Source: Candidatus Yanofskybacteria bacterium RIFCSPHIGHO2_01_FULL_43_32
GTDB lineage: Bacteria > Patescibacteriota > Minisyncoccia > 2-02-FULL-40-12 > GWA2-44-9
Assembly (NCBI GenBank): GCA_001794125.1
Contig: MGJF01000002.1
Location: forward strand, 236,514 to 300,513
DNA: 64,000 nucleotides
Direction: 5' to 3'
Part shown: in pieces, positions 1,220 to 63,362 of the stretch
Numbering within the stretch: the first letter of the stretch is position 1
Layout of the letters: each line of letters starts with the position of its first letter
Position numbers and translations under genes: made by a program
The notes under the pieces: generated by a model
What the model saw: the letters and a program-made list of their open reading frames with translations, nothing else
What the model was told of the DNA's origin: nothing
Database searches by the model: none

Positions 1220-1452
1220 TTAGCTTAAAGCTTTTGTTATAAGAGGCGACTTCATCTTTAATACTGCTCCCGGATCTGTCCTGTCGTCATAGTCCGTATC
1301 TACAGTAATCGACCCGCATACTATGCACCACCTGACAACATCACTCTCCATATCGCCTCCTGATTCATAAATTTTTACAAGCGTGTGTTTGCCATTTTTA
1401 CATTCTCTCTCAACAATTTTATCAACATTGGCCTTGTATTTTTCTCTTGTCA
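1220..1452 (-). CDS. Small hypothetical protein with CxxG/CxxC motif (track ORF extends to 1654; N-terminal extension probably not coding because it consists of a dispersed repeat)
   Basis: Met at 1452 preceded by GAGAGG RBS; upstream 1521-1605 is a repeat whose other copy (40929-41013) is intergenic. Confidence 0.4.
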
Positions 1453-1520
1453 TCGCAAACCTCTCACAAAACAGGACTTCGCTGATAATACCGCGATTTT
1501 TTATTCTAAGCAACTCATGA

Positions 1521-1605
1521 GCGGCAAATCTTTCTTGTCTCTCGGCATTATTTAAGAACCAAGCAAATAATGCCTCCGAGTCCTTCTCTGAAGGCACATG
1601 TCCTT
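1521..1605 (+). repeat. Dispersed structured repeat family 1, copy 1 (hairpin CTCGGCATTATTT-aAGAACCAAGC-AAATAATGCCTCCGAG followed by CCTTCtctgGAAGG)
   Basis: ~85 % identity with 40929-41013; stem differences are compensatory (tattt/aaata vs ttcg/cgaaa). Confidence 0.6.
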
Positions 1606-1754
1606 CGCTGCCATGTTTAATTACGAAAGGAACCCCGGTCGTCTTAAGACACATAAAGACCCTCGCGAAGGCGAGGGCGTAAGGTAGCTGAGGTTCAGCA
1701 GAACCGGAAGCGGGCCGTAGATGACCGGGGTTCCTGGAGGATTATTTTCAAACA

Positions 1755-6924: not shown

Positions 6925-7799
6925 CCATTATTACAATCAACCACAATAGTTCGGAAAACACGATAAAACTTTTGGAATCATTAAAAAACCAGACCGAGAA
7001 AGATTTTGAGGTTATCGTTATAGATAACAACTCTGATAATGTAGGCAAACTGATGGATTATGAGACACCAGAAACCAACATAATTTACATAAAGAACGAC
7101 CGCAATCTGGGTTATTCGGGAGGCAATAATGCGGGTATCAAAAAAGCCCTTGAAAACGGGGCAGATTGGGTGCTTTTACTCAACAATGATACTTGGGTTG
7201 AAAGCTCATTTATAGAGCGTCTAAGGGCTGTTTTGGACTCTTCGGCGGGCTCAGGGCAAAGGGGCAAGGAAGGAATTATCGGCTTAGCTTTGGATGAAGG
7301 AAGCAGAACCTCTTTTGCCGGCCTGATTCAATGGTTAAAACCAACACTTATCCACATAACGACCTTCAAGGTCGTTAGTCCACGGGCTTATGCTATCGGC
7401 GGGGCGATGCTTATTCATAAGAATGTTTTTGATAAAACAGGATTTTTGGATGAGAATTATTTTTTGTATTTTGAGGACGCTGATTTTTGCCAAAGAGCCC
7501 GCAAAGCAAGGATTCCGGTATCTTTTCTATCCGAAATAAAAATCTCTCATTCCGTTTCCGCCTCAACCAAAAAACTGGGCTCGCCGATGCTTCTGCGGTA
7601 TCACTATCGTAATGCCCTCTATTTTAATTTTAAAAATGGGCCGTGGTATATTAAACTACTGACTCAGCCGTGGAGTTGGTTGATTGCTCTAAAACAAATA
7701 ATAAAAATAGTGATCGGCAAAAATAAGGAACAATCCCTTGCAATACTAAAGGGGGTGGGGGATTGGTATGCCGGCAGAATGGGAAAATTACATGATTAA
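6915..7799 (+). CDS. Glycosyltransferase family 2
   Basis: MRLTIITINHNSSENTIKLLESL...VIVIDNNSDN; ATG at 6915 overlaps upstream stop. Confidence 0.75.
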   Translation: MRLTIITINHNSSENTIKLLESLKNQTEKDFEVIVIDNNSDNVGKLMDYETPETNIIYIKNDRNLGYSGGNNAGIKKALENGADWVLLLNNDTWVESSFIERLRAVLDSSAGSGQRGKEGIIGLALDEGSRTSFAGLIQWLKPTLIHITTFKVVSPRAYAIGGAMLIHKNVFDKTGFLDENYFLYFEDADFCQRARKARIPVSFLSEIKISHSVSASTKKLGSPMLLRYHYRNALYFNFKNGPWYIKLLTQPWSWLIALKQIIKIVIGKNKEQSLAILKGVGDWYAGRMGKLHD

Positions 7800-14113: not shown

Positions 14114-15355
14114 ATGACAAAAACAAAACAAATATTAATTATAAACATAATTGTTTCCCTCGCTTTAGGCTTTACGGGCGGTTTCTTGTTTAAAGATTTT
14201 GGCAGCGGAAATTCCGTGGCGGCGATTAAGCAACTGATAAACCTCGACAACGGCAAACCGGAAGATGTTGATTTTTCTCTTTTTTGGAAGGTATATAACG
14301 ACCTTGGCGCCAAATATGTTGATAAAGGGAAAGTAGACCCTCAAAAAATTCTTTACGGGGCCATAAACGGGCTGGTCAACAGCGTCGGCGACCCCTATAC
14401 TGTTTTTTTTGAGCCGGTCACAAGCAAGAAATTCCAGGAAGAAATATCCGGAAGTTTTGGCGGCGTCGGAATTGAAATAGGAAAGAGAAACAACATCCTT
14501 ACCGTCATAGCTCCCCTTAAAGATACGCCTGCTTTCAAGGCGGGAATTAAAGCGGGAGATAAGATATTAAAAATAGACGCCAAACCAACCGCAAATTTGA
14601 CAATTGAAGAAGCTGTAAACTTGATAAGGGGCAAAAGGGGGACAAAAGTTGTCTTGACCATACAAAACAGCGCCACCAAAGACATTGAACTCATCAGAGA
14701 CGCCATAAAAATACCGACCATTGACTGGGAACTGATTGACAGTCCGCCAGCCGGCGGAGGCAAAAAGATCGCTTATATGCAAATATATTCCTTTAATCAA
14801 ACAGTGGATTCGGAATTCAAAAAAGCATCGGAAGAAATACTGAAATCCAATGCCGATAGATTAATAATCGACCTGCGAAACAACCCCGGAGGATTGTTGG
14901 ATTCGGCCATAAATTTGGCCGGCTGGTTTTTAGACAAAAACCAAATTGTGGTCAGCGAGGTATTCAGAGACGGAACGAGAAATGAATTCCGGAGCGATGG
15001 CGATGCTTTATTGAAAAAATACCCCACGGTTATCTTGATGAACGGCGGTTCCGCTTCGGCATCGGAAATCTTAGCCGGCGCCTTGCATGATAACCGGGGA
15101 ATTAAAATAATAGGGGAGAAAAGCTTCGGGAAAGGCTCGGTTCAAGAACTGGAGAAATATACTGACGGTTCTTCCTTGAAAGTAACCATCGCAAAATGGC
15201 TTACTCCGGCCGGAATTTCAATCTCTGACAAAGGCATAGAAGCCGACGTTGAGATTAAGTTCAAAGAAGAAGACCTCAAAGAAGAAGGCAAAATAGAAAT
15301 CGGTACTCCGGGCAAAGACCCTCAGTTAGATAAAGCGATCGAGATTGTAAGATAG
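14114..15355 (+). CDS. ctpA: Carboxyl-terminal processing protease (S41, PDZ domain); carries in-frame PPAGGG palindromic insert
   Basis: PDZ GGVGIEIG...GIKAGDKILKIDAKP and S41 NGGSASASEILAGAL. Confidence 0.85.
   Translation: MTKTKQILIINIIVSLALGFTGGFLFKDFGSGNSVAAIKQLINLDNGKPEDVDFSLFWKVYNDLGAKYVDKGKVDPQKILYGAINGLVNSVGDPYTVFFEPVTSKKFQEEISGSFGGVGIEIGKRNNILTVIAPLKDTPAFKAGIKAGDKILKIDAKPTANLTIEEAVNLIRGKRGTKVVLTIQNSATKDIELIRDAIKIPTIDWELIDSPPAGGGKKIAYMQIYSFNQTVDSEFKKASEEILKSNADRLIIDLRNNPGGLLDSAINLAGWFLDKNQIVVSEVFRDGTRNEFRSDGDALLKKYPTVILMNGGSASASEILAGALHDNRGIKIIGEKSFGKGSVQELEKYTDGSSLKVTIAKWLTPAGISISDKGIEADVEIKFKEEDLKEEGKIEIGTPGKDPQLDKAIEIVR
14743..14758. repeat. 16-bp palindrome TCCGCCAGCCGGCGGA, copy 1 (in ctpA, encodes PPAGG)
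   Basis: exact string. Confidence 0.8.
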
Positions 15356-15486
15356 AGCTTTCACTTCATCATTTTTCTGCTCATAATCTTCATTTTGTCA
15401 TTCGCTTCAAGTAATAGGCATGTATGTATCAAAATAACAGGTAACCCACACTTGCCTCTTCTAAAATTACTTTATTAAAAACGAAA

Positions 15487-16290: not shown

Positions 16291-16329
16291 CCAGCTCCGC
16301 TCCCGCCAATCCCCATCCTTATCCTTATC

Positions 16330-16740
16330 GCTCCGCCACTCCCCATTCTCGACCTGTTGCCTGCGCCTTCGGTCTCCTTCGGACAAATGCTTAAATTTAT
16401 CTCAATTCAGCTATGAATTTTGTTATCCATTCCTGCTTCGCGACCAAAATTCATTCTTAGTTGAATTTTCAACAAATTTAATCATTATGTTACCCTCGGA
16501 GGCAAACGGTCTAAAATGGGGATAGGGCTTTCGCTATTAAACACAGAGCCCCCAGTCGCCAATCTCTCTGATAGCACTCCACGCAGCAATGGGGTAAACA
16601 AAATAGGGGTCAAATGAGTAAATATGCGAATTAGCAGAGCGCTCTCGCATATTTATGAAATGAGACCCCATTTTGTTCGCATTGCGGAGTTGTGATAGAG
16701 GAGAGATTGCGATGGAGGGGCGGTAGAGAGGCGGAGTGAG
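16330..16740 (+). repeat. ~410-bp structured non-coding element, family 2 copy A (conserved blocks CGACCTGTTGCCTGCGCC..GGTCTCCTTCGGACAAAT, GTTACCCTCGGAGGCAAAYGGTCTRAAATGGGG, GCGGAGWTGTGAT..GATTG)
   Basis: second copy 37027-37440 in same orientation; no ORF; internal hairpins differ in sequence but keep position. Confidence 0.6.
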
Positions 16741-19348: not shown

Positions 19349-19468
19349 ACACAACCTCCATGCATGACTGCGGGGTGCACTTTTTAAAAATTTACTAATT
19401 TTAAAAAAGCACACCCCCTCCGCCGGTTGTTTAGAGTATAGCTGATAATTAACAATAAAGAGTCAAAC
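19349..19468 (-). repeat. Structured repeat family 3, copy L (promoter-like TTGACT-N19-TATACT, AACAACCGGCGGAGGG, stem, CATGCATGGAGGTTGTGT); inverted relative to copy R
   Basis: aligned by eye to 21181-21301 and 50381-50559. Confidence 0.6.
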
Positions 19469-19515
19469 CATCTCTGGTGAGCCGTTGATTGTTGGTATGA
19501 AAGTTATGCCTTGCA

Positions 19516-20538
19516 ATGGGTGGCAAAGATAGTAAAATTAAACCAATGACAAATCATAAGATTGTAATTGGCGACTCAAGGAAAATGGCAGAGATTGCCG
19601 ATGAATCTGTCCAGCTTGTTATTACTTCGCCTCCATATTGGCAACTCAAGGATTATGGATCAAAAAATCAAATTGGTTTTGACGATTCTTACGAGGACTA
19701 CATAAATAATTTAAACTTGGTTTGGAATGAGTCATATCGTGTCTTAAGTCCGGGTTGCAGACTTTGTATAAACATAGGAGACCAATTTGCTCGCTCCGTT
19801 TATTATGGAAGGTATAAAGTCATTCCAATTCGAACGGAGATAATTAAGTTTTGCGAAACCATCGGTCTTGATTATATGGGCGCCATAATTTGGCAGAAAG
19901 TTACAACGACAAACACAACAGGTGGCGCAAGCATTATGGGCAGTTTTCCATATCCAAGAAATGGTATTTTGAAATTAGATTATGAATTTATTTTGATTTT
20001 TAAAAAACCAGGAGCACTACCTCAACCACCCGAAAACATTAAAGAGAAATCAAGATTAACAATAGACGAGTGGAATAAATATTTTGCAGGACATTGGAAT
20101 TTTAACGGTGCCAGACAAGAGCAACATTTAGCCATGTTTCCGGAAGAGTTGCCAAAAAGACTTATAAAAATGTTTAGCTTTGTGGGGGAGACGGTACTCG
20201 ACCCTTTTTTAGGAAGTGGTACAACTACTTTGGCGGCAAAGAATTTAGAACGAAATTCTGTCGGATACGAAATTAATAACAATTTTCTGCCACTTATTAA
20301 GGAAAAAATAGGGGTAAATCAAAAAAACTTGTTTTCTAATGCCAAATTAGAATTTGTTAAGCAAAACAAATTCAACCAGGATTTTAAAATAGCCGTTGCC
20401 GACCTATCTTACGTTTTTAAAGACCCGATAAAAATTACGAGGAATATTAATACTAAAAAAATGAAGTTTGGTTCGAAAATTGATTCATCTGACTTTAATT
20501 ATAAACCCTTAAAGTTAAAAGAAGCATTCTTTAAATGA
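19516..20538 (+). CDS. Type II DNA methyltransferase, beta-class amino-MTase (N6-adenine or N4-cytosine)
   Basis: motif IV VITSPPYW precedes motif I DPFLGSGTT. Confidence 0.8.
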   Translation: MGGKDSKIKPMTNHKIVIGDSRKMAEIADESVQLVITSPPYWQLKDYGSKNQIGFDDSYEDYINNLNLVWNESYRVLSPGCRLCINIGDQFARSVYYGRYKVIPIRTEIIKFCETIGLDYMGAIIWQKVTTTNTTGGASIMGSFPYPRNGILKLDYEFILIFKKPGALPQPPENIKEKSRLTIDEWNKYFAGHWNFNGARQEQHLAMFPEELPKRLIKMFSFVGETVLDPFLGSGTTTLAAKNLERNSVGYEINNNFLPLIKEKIGVNQKNLFSNAKLEFVKQNKFNQDFKIAVADLSYVFKDPIKITRNINTKKMKFGSKIDSSDFNYKPLKLKEAFFK

Positions 20539-21128
20539 AAACTCTCAAAATTGATAATAAAAAGCTCCTTGAACTTCTAAATATTGAGCCGCCTAAATTT
20601 GCAAAATATTCCGGGCCTCTAATGAATTTAGCAAATCGGTTTATTGGCGGCACTAAACCAAAAGTAGTGGGACAAATGAGCGAGTTAATAAAAGAATTTG
20701 ATGGCAAAACTTTTAAAGAGTGGGAAAGTTGGTATTTGAAAAAACATCCTAAAGCTATTGATGCGGCAGTAGAGAAGATTACCCAAATGCTCATTAATTT
20801 TAAAGATGTTTTAGAAAAAACCGACGAGGCATCTATAAAAAGGTGGGTGCGTGACCTTGTAATTATTAAGACATTTGTCGGCTTGAAAAATCAAGAGGCA
20901 ATTTTAAAATCAGTTGCCGAATATTTTAAAACTGAATATAGATCGGCCAAACCAGCAGAGGAGTCAAAAGGAATTGACGGTTTCATCGGAGAAAAATCTG
21001 TAAGCATTAAACCGCATACATACTTACTCAAACCTGAACTATTGGAAAAGATTGAAGCTCCCATTATTTACTACGAAAAGACAAAGACCGGACTCAAAAT
21101 ATATTTCCCAGAAAACTTAACAAAATAA
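20535..21128 (+). CDS. Putative cognate type II restriction endonuclease (assignment by context only)
   Basis: start codon overlaps MTase stop (ATGA); 197 aa, no recognisable family motif. Confidence 0.4.
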   Translation: MKTLKIDNKKLLELLNIEPPKFAKYSGPLMNLANRFIGGTKPKVVGQMSELIKEFDGKTFKEWESWYLKKHPKAIDAAVEKITQMLINFKDVLEKTDEASIKRWVRDLVIIKTFVGLKNQEAILKSVAEYFKTEYRSAKPAEESKGIDGFIGEKSVSIKPHTYLLKPELLEKIEAPIIYYEKTKTGLKIYFPENLTK

Positions 21129-21180
21129 TTAACCCAGCATTATTATTCCCCTAAGCAAGGCTTCTGGGAACATTAAAGAA

Positions 21181-21301
21181 GTTTGACTTTCTATTGCCAA
21201 TCGTCACTCATTAACCAAAACAACCGGCGGAGGGAGCATGCTTTTATAAAATCAGCAGTATTTTAGAAAAGTATGCTCCGCAGCATGCATGGAGGTTGTG
21301 T
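21181..21301 (+). repeat. Structured repeat family 3, copy R
   Basis: GTTTGACTttctattgccaatc...AACAACCGGCGGAGGGAGCATGC...GTATGCTCCGCAGCATGCATGGAGGTTGTGT. Confidence 0.6.
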
Positions 21302-36998: not shown

Positions 36999-37026
36999 TG
37001 ATTAAAGTATAACACGCTTCTTCAGT

Positions 37027-37440
37027 TTCGCCTCTCCCCATTTCCGACCTGTTGCCTGCGCCTCCGGTCTCCTTCGGACAAATCATCAAATTATTCTCAA
37101 TTTGCTTAATAAATTTCAGTAACCGTTCTTTCTTCATAAGATTCAGGAATTTCCGACTAAAATTTATTGGGATTAAGCAAATTATCAAATAATTTGATGA
37201 TCGTGTTACCCTCGGAGGCAAATGGTCTGAAATGGGGGGAAGCCTGCACTTTAAGTTGACAAGTAAAATCCCAGCCATATCCCTGTCTGAATCACTCCTC
37301 GCAGCGATACGGTAACATAAAGAAGCTGACAGATAGGAAATTGAAGCTATAGTCGAAGCGATCGCTTCAATTTCCGTACATCCGTCAGCTCTTTTGTCGT
37401 ATCGCGGAGATGTGATGAAGAGAGGGATTGGCAGGGAATA
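37027..37440 (+). repeat. ~410-bp structured non-coding element, family 2 copy B
   Basis: shares three conserved blocks with 16330-16740; internal long inverted repeat ATCATCAAATTATT..ATTTGCTTAAT/ATTAAGCAAAT..AAATAATTTGATGAT and hairpin GAAATTGAAGC...GCTTCAATTTC. Confidence 0.6.
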
Positions 37441-37500
37441 AGCAAGTGGGAAAGGTTGAACATAAAGTTTAATTAAAAAAGCCGACGGTGGTCGGCAATA

Positions 37501-38600: not shown

Positions 38601-39407
38601 CTACTTAATCCTGATATTCAATACCAAATCCCCTGACATCTTTCCGGCTTTGCCGGTGTTTCCGCCTTTGGGAATAACTATATTGTAATTATTTTCTAAA
38701 TTTTCGGGAATGCGGATTTCCAGTTTCTTTTTGGCTTTAACCCTGCCCGCTCCTTTGCACTTGGAACATTCTTTTTCGGGCATCCTGCCTTTGCCTCGGC
38801 AAGTACCGCAAACACCAATACGGGTAAACATGCCCATCGCAGTCCTTGAGGTATATCTTATCTGGCCGGTGCCATGGCAGGTGTTGCAGGTAATAATTTT
38901 ATATCCCTTGGCAACTCCTTGCCCCGCGCATTCATCGCAGGTTCCAAATGAATCATATTCAACCGTCTTGGTAGTTCCTAAATCTTTTTTGCTTATAGTC
39001 AACTCCAGATACAAATTCTCCCCCTTTGAGTCCTCTTCTTCCTGTTGGGGCTGACGGAATCCGCCGAAAACATCCGAGAACATTTCAAACAAATCCTCGG
39101 CTCCGCCGGTTCGCCCCTGTGAACCGCCGAAGAAATCCCAGAAGTTTCCTCCCTGTCCGCCAAAATCATATCCCCCCTGCTGGAATCCCCCATCACTGTA
39201 ACCAAAACCGAAGTTGTCGTAATTAGACCTCTTCTTTGGATCGGATAAGATTTGATAGGCCTCGTTTATCTCCTTGAACTTCGCCTCATTGCCTGTTTTC
39301 TTATCAGGATGATGCTCGTGGGCCAACTTACGAAATGCTTTCTTAATCTCATCTTCCGAGGCATTTCTCTGAACACCTAATATATTGTAATAATCCTTAT
39401 TTTGCAT
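38601..39407 (-). CDS. dnaJ: Molecular chaperone DnaJ (short form: J-domain, G/F region, CxxCxGxG zinc finger, truncated C-terminal domain)
   Basis: [31 protein letters not shown]; four CxxCxG repeats. Confidence 0.8.
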
Positions 39408-39440
39408 AAAAATGGCTTATTTTCTTACTATTTTACACTA

Positions 39441-39542
39441 CTTGACCCCTCACCTTTTGAGCAATTGTGATTATATCACAATTTTGCAGATTTTTGCTCG
39501 AAAGGTGAGGGGTTGACAAAATGATTCAATATATGATATAAT
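39441..39542. promoter_or_regulatory. Divergent promoter/operator region: 21-bp inverted repeat CTTGACCCCTCACCTTTTGAGC / GCTCGAAAGGTGAGGGGTTGACAA, inner palindrome AATTGTGATtataTCACAATT, and plus-strand TTGACA(39513)-18-TATAAT(39537)
   Basis: read directly. Confidence 0.55.
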
Positions 39543-39547
39543 TAAAA

Positions 39548-39996
39548 CATAGTTACGTAATCGCCGTTTTAGAGGCCCGGCGGCTTGTAGAATAGAGCCT
39601 CAAAGTTCTTCGAAATTCGGGGGGGTGCACGACACGCGACCCGATAGAGGGTTGGCGCGCAGTTCTCTCCCGATACCTGGCCAGAAGGAAAAGATCGGCA
39701 GCGACGAGTGATGCGCAGATGGCGCATCTGTTGTCATGGGCTGTCGACAAGAACCCCTTCTGCGAAAGGCCGGATCAGACGCACCAGGGCGTCCCGGCGT
39801 TATTCGTCTTTTCGGCGGATAAGAACCTGCCTTGTGCATTCACAGGTAGGAATGCATCGTAAAGCGGTAGAGGCCTCAAGCCCAATTCCGCAGCTGGGTA
39901 CGTCAACCCCAGCACGCGTCTTCCTTTTGCGGAGTGGTCTCCTAACCGTGCTTTAGCCGGTTAAGGAACTCTGTCGGGAAGGCGTTTTTTGTTTTT
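39548..39996 (+). ncRNA. Candidate abundant structured ncRNA (GC-rich, ORF-free); possibly RNase P RNA (P4-like GAAAGGCCGG...AGGGC and AGCCGGUUAAGG) but unconfirmed
   Basis: consensus promoter immediately upstream, GC ~58 % vs AT-rich genome, many local hairpins, ends in T-run 39985-39996; followed by 19-bp stem hairpin 39997-40059. Confidence 0.45.
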
Positions 39997-40060
39997 CCCC
40001 GCCGTTGAAAAGAAATGGTTTGCAACAATGCCAAAGGCAGTTTCTTTTCAACGGCGGGGT

Positions 40061-40855
40061 TTAAACCACCAACACTTCCGCTTTCACATCCTTCTCTTCG
40101 GTCCGGACAACCCGGGTCTTTTTTAATATCCAGAACAAAATCATTCCGACCAGCATACCGCACCAGATAAAAATAAATGACAGGCCAGACAAAATAAGAA
40201 ACAGTCCAAATGCCAATATCGGCGGCGCAAACCGGAAATACGGTTTTAAAAATTGGTTGACTTGCTGATAAGCCTGACTGGCAATTTGGCCGACAATATA
40301 TCTACGTTCAGCGGCATTTTGCGTGTCCAAACGCGGACCGATAAACTTATCAGCGACCTGCTGAAAAAAAGTCTGCGTCTGACCGGGCAAAGCGCCGGCT
40401 TTTTCTATTTGAGTTAATAACGGACTCTGATATGCGGCAAAGGATATCATTACAAAAAGCCCCAGGACCACTGATGTAAGACCATGATAAAACATGTCGG
40501 GAATGTTCATTATTTTCCGTTCAATAATCTCGCGCCGGACCCGGTTGGCTGACCAGAGGTTAAAAATCAGAAAAATTCCAACGGCGACAAAATTAAGCCA
40601 ATTCCAGCCAAAAACATAAAGAAATATAAGTCCTATGATTCCGGCCGTGGTCAGAGACCAGCGCCGCTGTTGGAACAAAACATATCCAAGCACAAGAACC
40701 GCAATTAGCAAAACGAAAGCACCCAGAGCCGGTATCTTGAAGTCGATTCCCGTAACGGCATCAAATTTAGCCGACTGACCGCCTAACCACATCCGCCAAG
40801 CCAAAACCGCCACCCCCGCATGCCAGATAATTAGTTTTGTTGTTAATTTATTCAT
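40061..40855 (-). CDS. Polytopic membrane protein, hypothetical
   Basis: 7-8 TM segments. Confidence 0.55.
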   Translation of the reverse strand: MNKLTTKLIIWHAGVAVLAWRMWLGGQSAKFDAVTGIDFKIPALGAFVLLIAVLVLGYVLFQQRRWSLTTAGIIGLIFLYVFGWNWLNFVAVGIFLIFNLWSANRVRREIIERKIMNIPDMFYHGLTSVVLGLFVMISFAAYQSPLLTQIEKAGALPGQTQTFFQQVADKFIGPRLDTQNAAERRYIVGQIASQAYQQVNQFLKPYFRFAPPILAFGLFLILSGLSFIFIWCGMLVGMILFWILKKTRVVRTEEKDVKAEVLVV

Positions 40856-40928
40856 GCATTCACAAAATTAGTTCCTCGAAGACTGTTCAGGATATATGCC
40901 TTCCTCGAACCAGAATAGATTTGTTCCG

Positions 40929-41013
40929 GCGGCAAATCTTTCTTGTCTCTCGGCATTTCGCAGAACCAAGCCGAAATGCCTCCGAGTCCTTCTCTGAAGG
41001 CATATATCCCTCA
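40929..41013 (+). repeat. Structured repeat family 1, copy 2 (intergenic)
   Basis: GCGGCAAATCTTTCTTGTCTCTCGGCATTtcgcAGAACCAAGCcgaaATGCCTCCGAGTCCTTCTCTGAAGGCA. Confidence 0.6.
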
Positions 41014-41028
41014 CTAAAAATTCTATAA

Positions 41029-41364
41029 TCAATCTTGTTCATTTATCAATTTAAACTTAACCACCTTAACCATTGTATCTAAATTTACCTTATCACCATA
41101 ATATTTCTTTAGGGATTGCAGCATCTCATCTTTACTATCCCACTTCTCGTGTCCATCAAGGTCAATGTCGTCAATCTCGCCAAGCTTTTTATACACCACT
41201 TCGGTTATTACGGCTTTGGAAAACGCCTCTCCGGAATCGCTGTTTACTAATTCCAATTCATCACCATCTTTCAAATCCTTATCATCAAAAAGGCGCATGG
41301 TGGCAGTTTTAACTCCTTCCAAAATCCATCTCGCCTTAAAATCTTTAAATTTCAGAGTTTTCAT
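41029..41364 (-). CDS. ASCH domain protein
   Basis: ARWILEGVKTATMRLFD motif typical of ASCH. Confidence 0.7.
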   Translation of the reverse strand: MKTLKFKDFKARWILEGVKTATMRLFDDKDLKDGDELELVNSDSGEAFSKAVITEVVYKKLGEIDDIDLDGHEKWDSKDEMLQSLKKYYGDKVNLDTMVKVVKFKLINEQD

Positions 41365-41384
41365 TTATTAAGTATTTTTAGAGC

Positions 41385-41515
41385 CCCCAGCCACATACCC
41401 ACAGGGAGAACTTGCGCAAACGTTTCGGCTTGGTTCTTCGAAACGTTGAGCATGTAGATAGCGCCGAGCCGCTGGAGCGAGGCGACTATCGGTCGAGTCG
41501 GGGGTATGTGGCTGG
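41385..41515. repeat. Large palindromic structure (CCAGCCACATACCC ... GGGTATGTGGCTGG) enclosing an inverted copy of the family-1 hairpin (CGTTTCG gcttggttctt CGAAACG)
   Basis: read directly; lies between dnaK stop and ASCH gene start. Confidence 0.5.
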
Positions 41516-41548
41516 GAGCGATTCTGAAAAATGAATGAGATAGAGCGA

Positions 41549-43429
41549 TTAGTCTTTAGGGTCCTCCTTCGGAATCTCGTTCTCCGGATTTGGCGGTGTC
41601 GGCTGAGGTTCGGCTTGGCCGGATTTGTACAACTCTCCCCCGATTCTTTGCGCCACTTTGGATAATTCTTCCGTAGCTTTTTTGATCTCCTCTATGTTCT
41701 CCGACTTTAAGATGGTTTTAACCGCTTCGGCCTTTTCGTTCAATTCCTTTTTATCCTCTTCTTTTATTTTAGCATCATTTTTCTTGACCATCTTTTCCGA
41801 AGTGTAGGCAAGTGTTTCTCCGAGATTTCGAGCCTCAACCAATTCTTTCTTTTTGGCGTCTTCAACGGCATGCTTTTCGGCATCAGCCATCATCCGCTTC
41901 TTCTCATCTTCAGTCAGACCGGAAGAACCCTCTATTTTTACCGACTGTTCTTTTCCGGTAGCTTTATCTTTAGCTTTTACATTGAGAATTCCGTTAGCAT
42001 CTATATCAAAGCTTACTTCAACTTGAGGAATACCCCGAGGAGCCGGAGGAATGCCATCCAGAATAAATCTTCCGAGAGTTTTATTGTCATGCGCCATGGC
42101 TCTTTCACCTTGTAGCACGTGAATCTCCACCGAGGGCTGGTTATCAGCCGCGGTTGAGAATATCTGAGATTTGGAAACCGGAACAGTCGTGTTCTTGTCT
42201 ATCATTTTAGTAAACACCTGGCCGAGAGTTTCAATTCCCAGCGACAACGGCGTTACGTCCAGAAGCAGCACATCGCGGATCTCGCCCTGCATGATTCCGC
42301 CTTGCACGGCCGCGCCTAAAGCGACGACTTCGTCCGGGTTTATGTCTTTGTGAGGATCTTTTCCGAATAAATTCTTAACCTCCTGGACTATCAAAGGCAT
42401 TCTCGTCTGTCCACCAACCATAATAACTTCATTAATGTCGCCAATTTTAAATCCGCTTTCATCTAATGTCTTTTTTGTAAGTTGGATGGATTTGTCCACC
42501 AGGTCTTTAACTAATTCTTCAAGCTTGGCTCTGGTAAAAATAACAGAGAAATGTTTTGCGCCCGAGGCATCAGCGGAAATGAAAGGAATGCTCACTTCCG
42601 TCTGCATGGTGCTGGAAAGCTCGTGCTTGGCCTTCTCGGCGGCATCTTTTAACCTTTGGACAGCCAACTGGTCTTTTGAGATATCTACTCCGTGTTCTTT
42701 TTTATATTCTTCTATAAAGTAGCTTATAATCTTCTGGTCTATATCGTCTCCCCCCAAATGAGTATCTCCTCCCGTTCCTCTGACTTCTATCGTGTCGTCT
42801 CCTATTTCAAGCACAGAAACATCAAATGTTCCTCCGCCAAAATCATAGACTACTATCTTTTCATCCTTTTTCTTGTTTAGTCCGTAAGCAAGCGCGGCGG
42901 CTGTAGGTTCGTTAATAACTCTTTTTACATTAAGTCCCGCGATTTCTCCCGCATCTTTGGTGGCTTTTCTTTGAGAGTCATCAAAATACGCCGGCACAGT
43001 AATGATCACGTCTGTTATTTTTTCCCCCAATCTGTCTTCAGCATCAGCTTTTAATTTTTGGAGAACCATCGCCGATACTTCGGCCGGTTTAAGCCACTTA
43101 TCGCCCATCTTTATTTCAACATCATCGTGAGCTCCCGCTCTTAATTCATAAGGAAGAAGTTTTTTGTCTTTCTGAACTTCGGCATCGGAAAACCGGCGGC
43201 CGATAAGCCGTTTCATCGAATAAATAGTGTTGGCCGGATTTGTAACCGCTTGTCTCTTAGCGGTTACACCAACATATCTTTCGCCATTTTTGCCCATGGC
43301 GACAACGGACGGGGTAGTCCTCATCCCCTCTTTGTTTTCCAATATTCTCGGTTGACCCACTTCTACTACTGCCATCGCCGAATTGGTTGTTCCTAAATCG
43401 ATTCCTAATATTTTTGCCATTTTGAACAA
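41549..43429 (-). CDS. dnaK: Molecular chaperone DnaK (Hsp70)
   Basis: [23 protein letters not shown], full-length 626 aa. Confidence 0.95.
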
Positions 43430-49380: not shown

Positions 49381-49986
49381 ATGAATACCAAGTTTAAAGA
49401 CATCGTAAAATTATTTCAGAAACTCCCCGGCGTAGGACCGAGACAGGCAGCCAGATTTGTCATTGCTCTAATGGACAAACCGGAAGAAGAACTTCGTGAA
49501 TTCGGCAAAGCCGTAGCGAATTTGCGCAAGGAAATATCTTTTTGTCCTGTCTGCTTTAATATATCCGATAACGGTCTTTGTTCGGTGTGTTTAGACGGCA
49601 AAAGAGACCAGGCGAAACTATTGGTGGTAGAGAAAGTTACAGACTTGGATTCCATTGAACGGACAGGACTTTATAAAGGCCTTTACCACGTTCTTGGCGG
49701 AGCGATAAATCCTCTGGACGGCCTTACTCCCGAAACGCTTCGTTTAAAAGAACTTGCAGAACGCATAGGCAAGCTGGGAGACAAAAACATAGAACTTATC
49801 ATCGCCACTAATCCCAACACCGCCGGCGAAACAACTTCCCACTATATCCGAGAGGTTTTCGGCTCCGCCAGCTGGCGGAAAAAAGGGGTCTACCTGACCC
49901 GCCTCGCCCGAGGCCTTTCCTCCGGCTCAAATTTAGAATACACGGACGAGATAACACTGAAGAATGCGTTGGATTATAGGAAATAG
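49381..49986 (+). CDS. recR: Recombination protein RecR
   Basis: HhH LPGVGPRQAARF, C4 zinc finger CPVC...CSVC, Toprim. Confidence 0.9.
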   Translation: MNTKFKDIVKLFQKLPGVGPRQAARFVIALMDKPEEELREFGKAVANLRKEISFCPVCFNISDNGLCSVCLDGKRDQAKLLVVEKVTDLDSIERTGLYKGLYHVLGGAINPLDGLTPETLRLKELAERIGKLGDKNIELIIATNPNTAGETTSHYIREVFGSASWRKKGVYLTRLARGLSSGSNLEYTDEITLKNALDYRK

Positions 49987-50380: not shown

Positions 50381-50559
50381 CTTTGAACCTCTATTGCCAA
50401 TCACCACCTATTCACCAAGGCAACTGGCGGAGGGAGACGCCTTTATCCCAAAGAAGAACGTTCGCAGACGGGTAGCCGAGATAGAGCAAAAACCCGGCAG
50501 GGTTTTATGCGGTCTTCGTGGGATGAGGGCGTCTCCTTCCGTACGCGTAGAGGTTGTGT
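50381..50559 (+). repeat. Structured repeat family 3, solo copy 3 (longer central stem GGAGGGAGACGCC...GGCGTCTCCTTCC)
   Basis: CTTTGAACctctattgccaatc...CAACTGGCGGAGGGAG...GTAGAGGTTGTGT; followed by terminator 50571-50603. Confidence 0.55.
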
Positions 50560-52443: not shown

Positions 52444-52528
52444 AAATTATTTTTTGAAGCGCCCTTCGATAAACTCAGGGCACTTCTCCGGCTCAGCTTG
52501 CACTGAGCCTGTCGAAGTGCAGCGCCAC

Positions 52529-52600
52529 GGAGAATCGAACTCCGCTTCCATGCTTGAGAAGCATGTGTCCTAACCGATAGACGATGGCGCCATATTTATA
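52529..52600 (-). tRNA. tRNA-Glu (anticodon CUC)
   Basis: cloverleaf folded by hand: acceptor GGCGCCA/TGGCGCT, D GTCT/GGAC, anticodon stem CATGC/GCATG loop TTCTCAA, T-arm CGGAG-TTCGATT-CTCCG; trailer hairpins 52487-52527. Confidence 0.75.
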
Positions 52601-52910: not shown

Positions 52911-54218
52911 TTTAGAAAGCCACTTTTTACCCTGTCTGACCAGCAGGTCTTTTTTATTTCCTCCGCCGGCTGGCGGATCCGCCATTATTTCTTCCACTAT
53001 TTTTTCCATCCTCATTCCCTGCGAACCTTTTATCAAAATTAAATCCCCTTCTTTGATTAACTCTTTAACTTTCAATTTCGCTTCATCCGACGTATCAAAT
53101 CTATAAATATTTTCTCTGGGCATCTGATTGAAGGCCGAGTCAGCAATAAATTTCGCCCTTGAACCCACACAAACAAGCAAATCAACAAAACTTCCGGCCA
53201 CATTTCCCGCTTCTTTATGGGCATCTATCGTATATTTTCCCAACTCAAGCATATCTCCCAAAACAGCGACCCTCCGCGTTCCGGGTAAGTCCCGGAGTGT
53301 TTCCAACGCTAAATGTGTAGATAAAGGAGATGCATTATATGTGTCGTCTATGATTGTAGAGTTTTTGATTCCTTTCAGTATTTTCAATCTGCCTTTCGGT
53401 CCGTGATATTCAGAAATGGCCTCGCTTATATCAACCAAATTCATGTCGAAAATTGAACCGATCGCGGCCGCCGCGGCGGCGGCATATCCTTGGGATTTAC
53501 CCAAAGAACCGCTCAATTTAAATGGCACAAAACTATCATTATAATTTATTTTAAAACTCACTCCTTCTGGTCTCTCGTTAGAAATTAGAGATTGGAAATT
53601 AGAAATTTTAATATTTGCTCCCTCGCCAAACCCGAATGTAAGCACTTTTGCTTTTGTCCTTTCTTTCATTTCAAAAACAGCTAAATCGTCAAAGTTCAAA
53701 ACCGCGAAATCAGAGACCGAAAGCGCCTCGATAAGCCGGCCCTTCTCTTTGGCCACACCTTCAGGTCCGGAGAAATATTCTACATGAACCGGCACTTCCC
53801 CGACCGCGGTTACCACTCCGATATGAGGTTTGAACTTGGCGGCTAATCGCTTTATGTCGCCCGGCTTATCCGCTCCGTATTCTAACACTAAAATCTCCGG
53901 ATAATTTTTTTGAAAAAACAGGCCACAAAAAGAAACCGCCAAAACTCTGATCCAAAAAAACAAAGTATTCTCCGCTTCATAATATTCATCGGCCCAATTG
54001 CCCACGATGGTCAGCGGCACGCCGAATTCGTTGTTAAGATTGCCCTTTCCGGATCTGACTCTTTTTGACCTCGCCAACACAGCCGAAATCGCTTCTTTGG
54101 TTGATGTCTTGCCGACATTTCCGGTAATAGCGATAATTTGCGGTTTATAGCGCCTTAAATACATTTTGGCGATTATGTCGAGTTTCCAGACGATTATTTT
54201 TTTAATAAAGTTTTTCAT
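52908..54218 (-). CDS. murF: UDP-N-acetylmuramoyl-tripeptide--D-alanyl-D-alanine ligase; C-terminal PPAGGG palindromic extension
   Basis: IAITGNVGKTSTKE P-loop and NLNNEFGVPLT MurF hallmark. Confidence 0.8.
   Translation of the reverse strand: MKNFIKKIIVWKLDIIAKMYLRRYKPQIIAITGNVGKTSTKEAISAVLARSKRVRSGKGNLNNEFGVPLTIVGNWADEYYEAENTLFFWIRVLAVSFCGLFFQKNYPEILVLEYGADKPGDIKRLAAKFKPHIGVVTAVGEVPVHVEYFSGPEGVAKEKGRLIEALSVSDFAVLNFDDLAVFEMKERTKAKVLTFGFGEGANIKISNFQSLISNERPEGVSFKINYNDSFVPFKLSGSLGKSQGYAAAAAAAIGSIFDMNLVDISEAISEYHGPKGRLKILKGIKNSTIIDDTYNASPLSTHLALETLRDLPGTRRVAVLGDMLELGKYTIDAHKEAGNVAGSFVDLLVCVGSRAKFIADSAFNQMPRENIYRFDTSDEAKLKVKELIKEGDLILIKGSQGMRMEKIVEEIMADPPAGGGNKKDLLVRQGKKWLSK
52962..52977. repeat. 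16-bp palindrome copy 2 (in murF, encodes PPAGG; adjacent second palindrome TGGCGGATCCGCCA)
   Basis: exact string (reverse complement). Confidence 0.8.
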
Positions 54219-56477: not shown

Positions 56478-56537
56478 CAACTAAACCGATTTTATTTTAT
56501 AAAATGGTTCCTTGTTTATAATTTTGTTGCTACTTTC

Positions 56538-56553
56538 TCCGCCAGCCGGCGGA
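56538..56553. repeat. 16-bp palindrome copy 3 (9 nt after rsmH stop, would read NPPAGGE in rsmH frame)
   Basis: exact string. Confidence 0.8.
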
Positions 56554-56561
56554 TTGACGCT

Positions 56562-58964: not shown

Positions 58965-58985
58965 ACCCCGAATGGGGTTTTATTG

Positions 58986-59057
58986 TGGGCTCGAGAGGGA
59001 TTGAACCTCTGACCTTCCGAATGTGAATCGGACGTTCTACCACTGAACTACGAGCCC
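58986..59057 (-). tRNA. tRNA-Val (anticodon CAC)
   Basis: GGGCTCG/CGAGCCC acceptor, D GTTC/GAAC with AGTGGTA loop, anticodon stem TCCGA/TCGGA loop TTCACAT, T-arm AGAGG-TTCAATC-CCTCT. Confidence 0.85.
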
Positions 59058-62837: not shown

Positions 62838-63362
62838 TTAAGCTCCGACCTGTTTCTTTTTAACTATTTCGCTTAAAACCATTGCTAATCCGGAAACCGG
62901 ATATTTCATCATTCCGAACAATCTTGCCAGCAATATTTCTCTGGACGGCATCTTGGCCATTTCTAAAAATTTTTCTTTGTCCATGAAATGGCTTTCAAAA
63001 ATAGCTCCGAAAAACTGGAGGGCCTTATTTTTCTTGGCAAATTCGTAAAGTTTCTTGGAAATCGCATAAACATCCCCGCTTCCTAAAACTAATCCGACAG
63101 AACCTTCCATGTTGTAGACATCAACGCCCTCTCCGCCAGCTGGCGGATTTGATTCTTTCAAAACCAAATCCATCAAGGTTTTTTTGGTTACAAAGTATTC
63201 GGCATCCATGGTTCTCAATGCCTTTTTTAATTCCGACATCTGGGCCACAGACAAGCCTTTCTCGCCCGCTCTTGAGAAGGTGGTAAATACCGTTATTTTG
63301 GACTTCGGAAGTTTGGTTTTTAGCTTCTTTAGTTCCGTTGATTTTTGGGTTTTGCTTTTCAT
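62838..63362 (-). CDS. rplJ: 50S ribosomal protein L10; contains in-frame NPPAGGE palindromic insert
   Basis: position upstream of rplL and L10 N-terminal fold. Confidence 0.85.
   Translation of the reverse strand: MKSKTQKSTELKKLKTKLPKSKITVFTTFSRAGEKGLSVAQMSELKKALRTMDAEYFVTKKTLMDLVLKESNPPAGGEGVDVYNMEGSVGLVLGSGDVYAISKKLYEFAKKNKALQFFGAIFESHFMDKEKFLEMAKMPSREILLARLFGMMKYPVSGLAMVLSEIVKKKQVGA
63132..63147. repeat. 16-bp perfect palindrome TCCGCCAGCTGGCGGA copy 4 (in rplJ, encodes PPAGG)
   Basis: exact string. Confidence 0.8.

Follow-up and report, generated by a model that had tools for sequence, protein, structure and literature searches.

ERIC (or IRU) elements are dispersed intergenic repeats of about 127 bp that form a long imperfect hairpin and lie in either orientation relative to their neighbors. 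Longer variants of ERIC have internal insertions, and ERIC is thought to affect mRNA stability after being co-transcribed with neighboring genes. REP elements are simple hairpins of 20-40 nt with a 5' GTAG, are recognized as single strands, and often occur in inverted pairs (BIMEs). The Correia elements of Neisseria and the BOX and RUP elements of pneumococcus are MITE-like, structured, modular intergenic repeats that are transcribed; promoter-like sequences can occur in them, and RNase III cleaves them. Integron attC sites have R''/L''…L'/R' boxes and a terminal GTTRRRY core, and they lie in one orientation behind cassette ORFs.

Here we describe a new noncoding, Y-shaped element of about 140 nt, many copies of which are scattered in the small genomes of Candidatus Yanofskybacteria (candidate phyla radiation). 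We studied it in a 64-kb stretch of DNA from one of these genomes (the window). The copies are intergenic, fold stably, and are found at non-homologous loci in more than one genome, as in other dispersed structured intergenic repeats. Our best reading is that they form a new family of dispersed structured-RNA repeats, broadly of the kind to which ERIC, REP, BOX, and Correia belong, and we infer a possible function below.

The new family resembles ERIC in being intergenic, dispersed, and folded, in having both orientations, and in having longer insertion variants. However, it has no sequence similarity to ERIC; it has a three-way junction, while ERIC is a simple rod; its subfamilies show full turnover of the stems with fixed loops and junctions; its host is from the candidate phyla radiation; and we saw no TA target duplication at the Yanofskybacteria copies. 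Like REP/BIME, it is a short, structured, multi-copy intergenic repeat, with several subfamilies per genome, frequent inverted pairs, and strand-specific hairpins. But the unit is 115-215 nt across the family, Y-shaped, and closed by GCGA…GAGC; there is no GTAG at the foot of the element, no RAYT gene adjoins any copy, and the gene between the inverted pair in the window encodes an ASCH-domain protein. The family is modular, as are Correia and BOX (it has an outer shell, P0; it occurs in tandem with another repeat, module X; and copy 2 has a promoter-like site), but again there is no sequence similarity. Correia, BOX, and RUP are conserved over their full length and this family only in its loops, and we did not see their signature of terminal inverted repeats plus a duplication. 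The elements do not look like attC sites either, as their ends are AAGCGA…/…GAGCG and their orientations are mixed.

The window contains three members of the family: 40880-41019 on the minus strand, 41379-41523 on the plus strand, and 1457-1613 on the minus strand (Table 1). Each contains the 10-mer AGAACCAAGC, which has three exact occurrences in the window (1555 and 40962 on the plus strand and 41428 on the minus strand), as compared to about 0.12 expected by chance (64 kb x 2 strands / 4^10). A first-pass annotation of this DNA had placed the two direct copies correctly: 1521-1549 and 40929-40957 are identical at 29 of 29 positions, and 1569-1609 is 90% identical to 40975-41015. It was also right about the compensatory change in the stem. 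The stems of copies 1 and 2 differ at four positions per arm and by one base of length, and both pair perfectly around AGAACCAAGC; the upper stem is CATTATTT/AAATAATG in one copy and CATTTCG/CGAAATG in the other, and covariation extends across the family. The unit that it had delimited (1521-1605) was too short, as it covers only about 60% of the element; the full unit is about 140 nt (40880-41019 for copy 2). Similarly, it had reported an inverted third copy of the hairpin within a palindrome at 41385-41515. The hairpin is there, with a third, fully compensated stem (AACGTTTCG/CGAAACGTT), but the palindrome is itself a complete, diverged family member on the opposite strand.

Table 1. Members of the repeat family and their parts. 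Locations without a contig label are in the window.
Feature	Location	Strand	Description
Full-length subfamily-A element (copy 2)	40880..41019	-	162 bits (model R1), 154 bits (model R2); GC/tandem G·A, P1, P1a, P2 and P3
P1 5' strand, GGGAUAUAUGCCUUC	40996..41010	-	includes CCUUC; partner is 40889-40903
P1 3' strand, GAAGGCAUAUAUCCU	40889..40903	-	pairs with 40996-41010
P2 arm (copy 2)	40947..40986	-	invariant loop GCUUGGUUCU at 40962-40971
P3 arm with extension P3a, AGAA-AGAUUUGCC / GGAACAAAUCU-A-UUCU	40912..40943	-	loop of the conserved GCNGGA type
Promoter-like TTGATA-18-TAGAAT	41020..41049	-	consensus match only; ends just before the 5' end of copy 2
Full-length, strongly diverged subfamily-C element	41379..41523	+	P1 41386-41400 / 41501-41515; P2 hairpin 41419-41447; P3 41457-41489
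Intact 5' two-thirds of copy 1, subfamily A, type-1 stem	1521..1613	-	P1 5' strand, P2, P3 5' strand
Decayed 3' third of copy 1	1457..1520	-	about 66% identity to intact copies; 15-nt insertion in the P3 loop
Probable "mini" member, subfamily D (weak assignment)	50427..50542	+	21.8 bits (E = 0.0016), with filters off only
Subfamily B	L035:3120-3259, L035:10642-10781		covariance-model match
Subfamily C	L034:142-286, L026:841-985, L038:8325-8469		covariance-model match
Subfamily D (shorter, different P2 loop)	L033:49-163		covariance-model match

The minimum-free-energy fold of copy 2 (-53.6 kcal/mol, z = -5.1) matches the family structure. The subfamily-C element at 41379-41523 scores 62 bits with model R1 (E = 4e-13) and 113 bits with model R2 on the plus strand, as compared to 14 bits on the other strand. 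The palindrome within it folds at -68 kcal/mol (z = -4.8 to -7.2), and its nearest kin are the other subfamily-C copies, in L034, L026, and L038. Copy 1 aligns across the whole covariance model (58-75 bits), but it can no longer form P1, and the fold of the whole copy is unlike that of the family (z = -0.6). Its intact part is 100% identical over about 90 nt to another copy in the same genome (L038:19713-19854; L038, a 20-kb stretch of the genome that the window is from, contains three copies). With a perfect 5' part and a decayed 3' part, copy 1 looks like the product of a partial gene conversion. The probable mini member has a P0-like outer helix, a short P2 with a GGGUA loop, and P3; it folds at -68 kcal/mol (z = -9.2) and resembles the subfamily-D copy in L033 (33.8 bits). 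A structure at 1620-1745 scored only 13.8 bits, and we did not count it as a member.

If the copies are aligned on the strand with GCUUGGUUCU (the complement of AGAACCAAGC, and the functional strand), then homology spans about 140 nt. The hairpin around this loop is one arm, P2, of the element. The other parts are a closing helix (P1), a short helix (P1a), and a three-way junction that joins P2 to a second arm, P3. According to RNAalifold with 14 subfamily-A copies, P1 is a 15-bp helix with CCTTC in its 5' strand and a far-off GAAGG in its 3' strand, and P3 is AGAUUUGCC/GGAGCAAAUCU with a GCNGG loop. At the base of P1, GC pairs flank a tandem G·A (GCGA…GAGC), and this paired closing motif explains why AGCGA…GAGCG recurs. 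About half of the copies have an additional outer helix, P0 (CACCUUCAUCCCA/UGGGAUGAGGUG), which is closed by the same motif as P1 and brings the element to about 215 nt. One copy, L023, has a 44-nt palindromic insertion in the loop of P3.

The second hairpin of the first-pass annotation, CCTTC-tctg-GAAGG, is present in both direct copies, but across the family the CCTTC arm pairs with the distant GAAGG to form P1. The 5' strand of P1 could also pair locally in several subfamilies (CCUUC/GAAGG in A, GUUC/GAAC in one B copy, and CCC/GGG in C). We rejected the local hairpin (CCUUC-AGA-GAAGG) as a fixed feature, as P1 competes with it, and it can be no more than an alternative fold. We also tentatively set aside the lower half of P1a as predicted by RNAalifold (GGA/UCU), which has no covariation; the alternative, an extension of P3 that we call P3a, covaries (AGAA/UUCU versus AUAG/CUAU, with two compensated positions). 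L024 and L029 favor the GGA/UCU pairing over P3a. Another idea, that GGUUCGAG forms a T-loop or tRNA elbow, was dropped: this segment is the 3' strand of P1a, and its partner is GAA, GGAAC, or AAGAAC in subfamilies A, B, and D.

Besides the members in the window, we found about 20 copies, in four subfamilies (A-D), on related contigs from groundwater Yanofskybacteria (labeled L0nn). Scanning species-representative genomes with the loop and its 3' flank as a pattern gave three copies in one metagenome-assembled genome (L021-L023), and a pattern scan of metagenomes gave 13 more true loci. These patterns required the P2 loop and two junction words. Covariance models (R1, which was built from 14 copies, and a second model, R2) found diverged copies beyond the reach of the patterns, in DNA that had been collected for other reasons. 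Large collections were scanned by exact pattern and the covariance models were run on the window and the collected contigs, so copy number and taxonomic range are rough. In the sampled DNA, the density is roughly one element of 140-215 nt per 10-20 kb. Proteins from the window are also encoded on contigs of three Candidatus Yanofskybacteria assemblies (GCA_001794385, GCA_001794695, and GCA_001795855).

We did not find a known family at these loci. At the gathering threshold, Rfam 15 has just two matches in the whole window, both to tRNAs, and at E ≤ 10 nothing beyond miRNA and snoRNA noise comes up in 1100-1900 and 39300-41700. ARAGORN reports tRNA-Glu (52519-52591) and tRNA-Val (58985-59057) in the window and nothing at the elements. 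Searches of the literature found nothing on such repeats in Patescibacteria or Parcubacteria. A phage origin was rejected, as there was no blastn match in a phage collection and no pattern match in viral contigs.

The stems are wholly different between subfamilies and remain paired: 94-95% of the cells in our alignments can pair. In a structure-blind MAFFT alignment of 13 copies from subfamilies A, B, and C, RNAalifold recovers P1, P2, and P3, with 94.6% of cells paired as compared to 26-47% if the partners are slid by 1-3 columns. Both sides have changed in 23 of the 33 pairs in this alignment (3-9 when slid), and none of 500 shuffles reached the observed percentage paired or covariation score. 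Fitting 23 distinct sequences to the covariance model gave similar values: 94.3% of cells are paired, and both sides have changed in 27 of 43 pairs (11/15 in P1, 6/10 in the upper stem of P2, and 8/9 in P3). Minimum-free-energy folds of single copies from A, B, C, and D give the same architecture (z from -5 to -9). Judging from these alignments, the covariation is strong enough to indicate a real structured nucleic acid.

The loops and junctions, on the other hand, are nearly invariant across the family: 19 of 36 unpaired columns are invariant, versus 13 of 86 paired columns. The P2 loop is invariant in subfamilies A and B and in most of C; it is altered in the C copy L038:8325 and absent from D. 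Because the scan patterns fixed the P2 loop and the junction words, the invariance within subfamily A is partly built in, and only subfamilies B, C, and D, which were not selected by pattern, give an independent test.

Among non-Watson-Crick pairs on the GCUUGGUUCU strand, there are 67 G·U and 12 A·C. This excess implies that one strand carries the structure; the complementary strand would pair far less well. Copies that are antisense to the flanking genes show the bias too (23:3), but the copies are homogenized, so this argues only softly for selection of each copy on its own strand. From its sequence features, then, we take the functional form to be a single-stranded nucleic acid. The tandem G·A, the many wobble pairs, the branched junction, and the conserved loops on varying stems favor RNA. 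A single-stranded DNA form would give the same strand asymmetry.

The copies do not always precede genes, as the first-pass annotation had wondered. Among about 20 distinct loci, the element is upstream of a gene in the sense orientation at about 13, often with its 3' end 25-40 nt from the start codon, and it is antisense or behind a stop codon at about 7. In the window, copies 1 and 2 do lie upstream of minus-strand genes, at 68 and 74 nt from their starts, but the first start is at 1453 and not at 1452. The downstream genes have no common function (they encode a membrane protein, an FtsB-like protein, RelA, L32, S2, SecD, an HD protein, UDG, and a peptidase). We considered an enrichment of translation genes among the neighbors, but it is not above expectation for such a small genome.

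The flanks that we compared contain no promoter or terminator signal that is common to the copies at a fixed distance, and we found no terminator-like site in 40700-41700. A minority of copies, including the long-form L021, L030, and L032, are followed by T-runs on the 3' side. AT-rich, -10-like hexamers often lie a few nucleotides before the closing helix (TATAAT in L036). Copy 2 has a promoter-like site just before its 5' end (Table 1), but such sites are no more frequent in this region than in shuffled sequence. Between the element and rpmF, both L023 and L024 have a conserved promoter-like TTGCWT-N17-TAATAT.

We propose, with a probability of about one half, that the element is a transcribed RNA module whose loops are recognized by a protein or an RNA, and that its copies have been spread and homogenized as in ERIC, REP, BOX, and Correia. 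The element would act as RNA from the strand with loop GCUUGGUUCU. A long closing rod (the tandem G·A base, P1, and P1a) would present the arms P2 and P3, and a host factor or a complementary RNA loop would recognize a surface made up of the P2 loop GCUUGGUUCU (with CUUG, a putative YUNR-type motif), the P3 loop GCNGGA, and the purine-rich junction. Copies would spread to new intergenic sites and be kept alike by recombination or gene conversion, perhaps with mobilization in trans. Any effect on a neighboring gene would come via RNA ends, processing, or stability rather than ligand sensing. The copies do behave as repeats: at unrelated loci they reach 97-100% identity, which points to spread or gene conversion, and those at orthologous loci of different species are not more alike (94% for L021 versus L030). 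At the rpmF locus, the stem is type 2 in L023 and type 1 in L024. Contigs of other assemblies start or stop inside copies. Several observations fit less well. No common promoter or terminator signal flanks the copies; about one-third of them are antisense to both neighbors and as RNA would need a promoter of their own; the strand asymmetry would also be expected for single-stranded DNA; and the loop is altered in L038:8325 and missing from subfamily D.

It is possible, but we think rather doubtful, that the elements are instead non-autonomous mobile DNA (of the MITE, PATE, or REP type), in which a strand-specific enzyme acts in trans on a fold of single-stranded DNA and the RNA structure is a by-product. 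The enzyme could be an HUH/Y1 transposase (RAYT or IS200/IS605 TnpA) or another recombinase that is encoded elsewhere in the genome. The copies are numerous and dispersed, with the same near-identity at unrelated loci. Related species also differ in which copies they have: L025 lacks the C copy that the window has between dnaK and the ASCH gene. Other features that fit mobile DNA are the nested modular forms (the shell around long-form A copies is the outer helix of subfamily D), the palindromic insertion in the P3 loop of L023, the recurrent divergent pairs (A/C around the ASCH-domain gene in the window, A/B in L035, and A/D in L033), and the proximity to other rod-shaped repeat families. In particular, two A copies directly follow module X, another conserved rod-shaped repeat of about 215 nt; the module X in the window precedes long simple hairpins instead. 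Because single-stranded DNA systems are strand-specific, mobile DNA would also explain the excess of G·T over A·C.

However, no target-site duplications flank the copies, there was no clean empty site among the loci that we compared, and no transposase adjoins any copy at the loci that we collected. At the ends, P1 or P0 form inverted repeats, as a MITE would have, though with free covariation from one subfamily to another and with G·U pairs, more as one would expect of a helix than of a terminus bound by protein. Invariant loops and junctions with turnover of the stems are unlike known transposon ends, whose protein-bound arms are conserved, and the tandem G·A and frequent G·U are typical of RNA helices. 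The sole apparent rearrangement is in L005, where a C copy runs into another gene, with the join precisely where the element ends. We rejected this as proof of mobility: L005 is a k141 MEGAHIT contig with a 145-nt repeat, so it may be a chimeric join.

We consider it unlikely that the elements are independently transcribed small RNAs that act in trans, with the P2 loop kissing complementary AGAACCAAGC loops on transcripts that are antisense to copies. One such target could be a dnaK-ASCH-membrane gene transcript that reads through the C copy. If so, the loop would be forced to match its own complement in many copies, and this would freeze it, as seen. In the window, the sense A copy and the antisense C copy have 86% complementarity over 28 nt centered on the loop, and in general sense and antisense copies give perfectly complementary loops, as in kissing-loop antisense RNAs. 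The 5' and 3' ends are paired with each other, as in many stable small RNAs, and whichever way the neighboring genes point, it is the element's own strand that folds well and shows the G·U bias. The -10-like hexamers near the closing helix (TATAAT in L036; TTGATA-18-TAGAAT in the window) and the T-runs after the three long-form copies could be a promoter and a terminator. As leads, we note that CopA/CopT, RNA I/RNA II, and RNA-OUT also have stems of free sequence that present a fixed loop with a YUNR-type motif, and that the Qrr, csRNA, and LhrC families of small RNAs have several near-identical copies per genome. The CUUG in the P2 loop GCUUGGUUCU may be such a YUNR-type motif. Against small RNAs, the promoter and terminator signals are not shared at any fixed distance, subfamily D lacks the P2 loop, and the window has 7 further near-matches to AGAACCAAGC where 3.75 are expected, which is not a clear excess. 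The element is also larger than the kissing-loop and multi-copy small RNAs, it is branched, and we found no defined promoter or terminator for it.

A more speculative proposal, which we also view as improbable, is that the elements are a new class of self-propagating, branched RNA modules in candidate phyla radiation bacteria, with a frozen loop of the U-turn type. Kissing between sense and antisense copies from many operons would then make a genome-wide RNA network, or the loop would be a handle for a copying enzyme. This would explain why the loop is fixed while every stem can change.

It is quite improbable that each copy is a cis-regulatory 5' leader, such as a riboswitch or a protein-binding attenuator, of the gene downstream. 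The idea has its attractions: most loci are sense-upstream and many are close to the start codon, the fold covaries as strongly as well-supported riboswitch motifs do, the junction is conserved, which is also true of RNAs that bind ligands, and the alternative local pairing of the 5' strand of P1 is a switch-like feature. The first-pass annotation had raised a cis-regulatory RNA read on the minus strand, and it chose the right strand for copies 1 and 2 (the GCUUGGUUCU strand, with G·U:A·C of 67:12), but the element does not behave as a leader of particular genes. At seven loci it is antisense or lies at a 3' end, so orientation already weakens this reading, and position varies as well. The downstream genes are functionally unrelated, and in L023 and L024 the promoter-like site of rpmF is downstream of the element. 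Paralogous copies are near-identical even in their stems, which is how repeats behave and not how independently evolving leaders behave. Unlike riboswitches, the copies lack an expression platform (there is no terminator and nothing to sequester the ribosome-binding site) and have no match in Rfam.

Finally, we effectively dismiss the idea that the repeat encodes a conserved peptide or domain and that the 144-aa form of ORF 1220..1654 and the small ORFs over other copies are real: gene callers put ORFs on several copies (the 144-aa and 125-aa forms and proteins P0001 to P0005) and one frame (…GLVLRNAERQERFAAGANLFWFEEG…) is open in the type-2 A copies, but type-1 stems have an in-frame UAA in that one frame, and the substitutions are paired across the stems instead of being silent at third codon positions. 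The peptides PSEKDSEA and AERQERFAA share a frame in copy 1 but not in copy 2. Between copies, the frame is broken by a 2-nt difference in stem length, by the 44-nt insertion in L023, and by the type-1 UAA. Translations of subfamilies B and C are unrelated peptides, except for residues that are fixed by the conserved nucleotides. A protein search with the ORF across the element gave only five weak matches, and the 144-aa ORF has no homologue outside the species, as its sole match is the same gene called from another start (125 aa). Since the 67 extra codons of ORF 1220..1654 overlap a copy of this noncoding repeat, it is reasonable to think, from the frames, that they are not translated. A Shine-Dalgarno-like GAGAGG lies 6 nt before the ATG at 1453 and is derived from the decayed closing motif of copy 1. 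The ORF extensions and small "hypothetical proteins" that have been called over copies are most likely annotation artefacts.

Genomes of the candidate phyla radiation are about 1 Mb and strongly streamlined, and these organisms have not yet been grown alone. The DNA sampled here is nevertheless dense in these elements, alongside at least two other rod-shaped repeat families. Recognizing the repeats corrects the annotation of ORFs that were called across copies, and it explains contig breaks and possible chimeric joins in assemblies. We found no description of such a family for this lineage in Rfam or in the literature that we searched, and it gives a testable handle on the noncoding biology of candidate phyla radiation organisms.

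A second dispersed repeat, module X (about 215-240 nt), occurs in the window and in the loci compared with it, with 72-82% identity between copies, and it has no match in Rfam. It folds into a long rod in which, among the five copies in the table, 23 of the 74 pairs have changes on both sides. What comes next, within about 10-25 nt, differs: behind the two window copies of module X it is a long simple hairpin, and in L038 and L036 it is a subfamily-A copy of the Y element, the three-way-junction repeat. The apical halves of the two long hairpins are without sequence relation, yet each of them pairs. Relatives of these hairpins are found at L021:1409-1556 (90%), L035:9973-10139 (87%), L035:132-300, and L022:297-462, and they look like a third family of rod-shaped repeats.

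Structured repeats, noncoding DNA, and genes in the window and in compared loci (L numbers; L038 is from the window's own genome)
Feature	Position	Strand	Remarks
Module X	16310-16547	+	
Module X	37020-37264	+	
Module X	L038:9838-10047		
Module X	L036:2388-2606	-	
Module X	L040:7483-7682		
Long hairpins, near-perfect	16548-16725; 37265-37445		~175 nt; immediately behind module X
Small Cys protein	1223-1453	-	77 aa; 144 aa as called
Heat-shock operon, hrcA-grpE-dnaK…dnaJ	41029-43429 and 38601-39407		
GC-rich ORF-free DNA	39560-39990	-	~430 nt; between membrane-protein gene and dnaJ
Long inverted repeat	39433-39526		centre TTGTGATATAATCACAA; shortly upstream of dnaJ
Strong hairpin	39995-40061		67 nt; behind membrane-protein gene stop codon
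Short GC hairpin TCCGCCAGCCGGCGGA, 5 copies	14741-14760; 49862-49881; 52960-52979; 56536-56555; 63130-63149		

In the window, about 2.1 kb splits hrcA-grpE-dnaK from dnaJ. This insert holds a Y element of subfamily C, a gene with an ASCH domain, a Y element of subfamily A, the gene for a 264-aa membrane protein, and the GC-rich noncoding stretch. In a related species (L025), an extra gene, coding for 146 aa, and a piece of module X stand where the window has the C element. The GC-rich stretch, whose conservation with this species is limited to short islands (UUCUGGCCAGGUAUCGG, GGGUCGCG, and CCGAAUUUCGAA), may be a structured RNA; it has no match in Rfam at E ≤ 10. The stem of the strong hairpin next to it is also conserved in L025. 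The inverted repeat upstream of dnaJ looks like an operator and promoter.

Copy 1 of the Y element (1457-1613) is adjoined at its 5' end by another Y-shaped fold, in divergent orientation, at 1620-1745 (+). This fold is highly stable (-61.6 kcal/mol, z = -7.5), scores only 13.8 bits with the covariance model of the family, and has no relative among the loci that we compared and no match in Rfam. The annotated ATG of the 144-aa ORF falls within it. The small Cys protein is an orphan, related to no database entry except its own gene called from another start; the gene may thus be spurious.

The five short GC hairpins look like a common terminator-type stem. Window positions 15430-15461 and L023:6348-6379 share a conserved block of 32 nt (CAAAATAACAGGTAACCCRCACTTGCCTC); the intergenic regions around it, each about 500 nt, are otherwise without relation. 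The cumulative GC skew has its maximum near 20 kb, and gene direction changes at the same place (about 19400-21300); replication may start or end in this region. The stretch at 20-21 kb has a GC content of just 34% and is bracketed by 52-nt inverted repeats (19381-19432 and 21218-21269, 81%).

In L023, an otherwise typical A copy of the Y element carries a 44-nt palindromic insertion (6945-6988, including ATCGAGGATCCTCGAT) in the loop of its P3 arm, which shows that the P3 tip of the element tolerates expansion.
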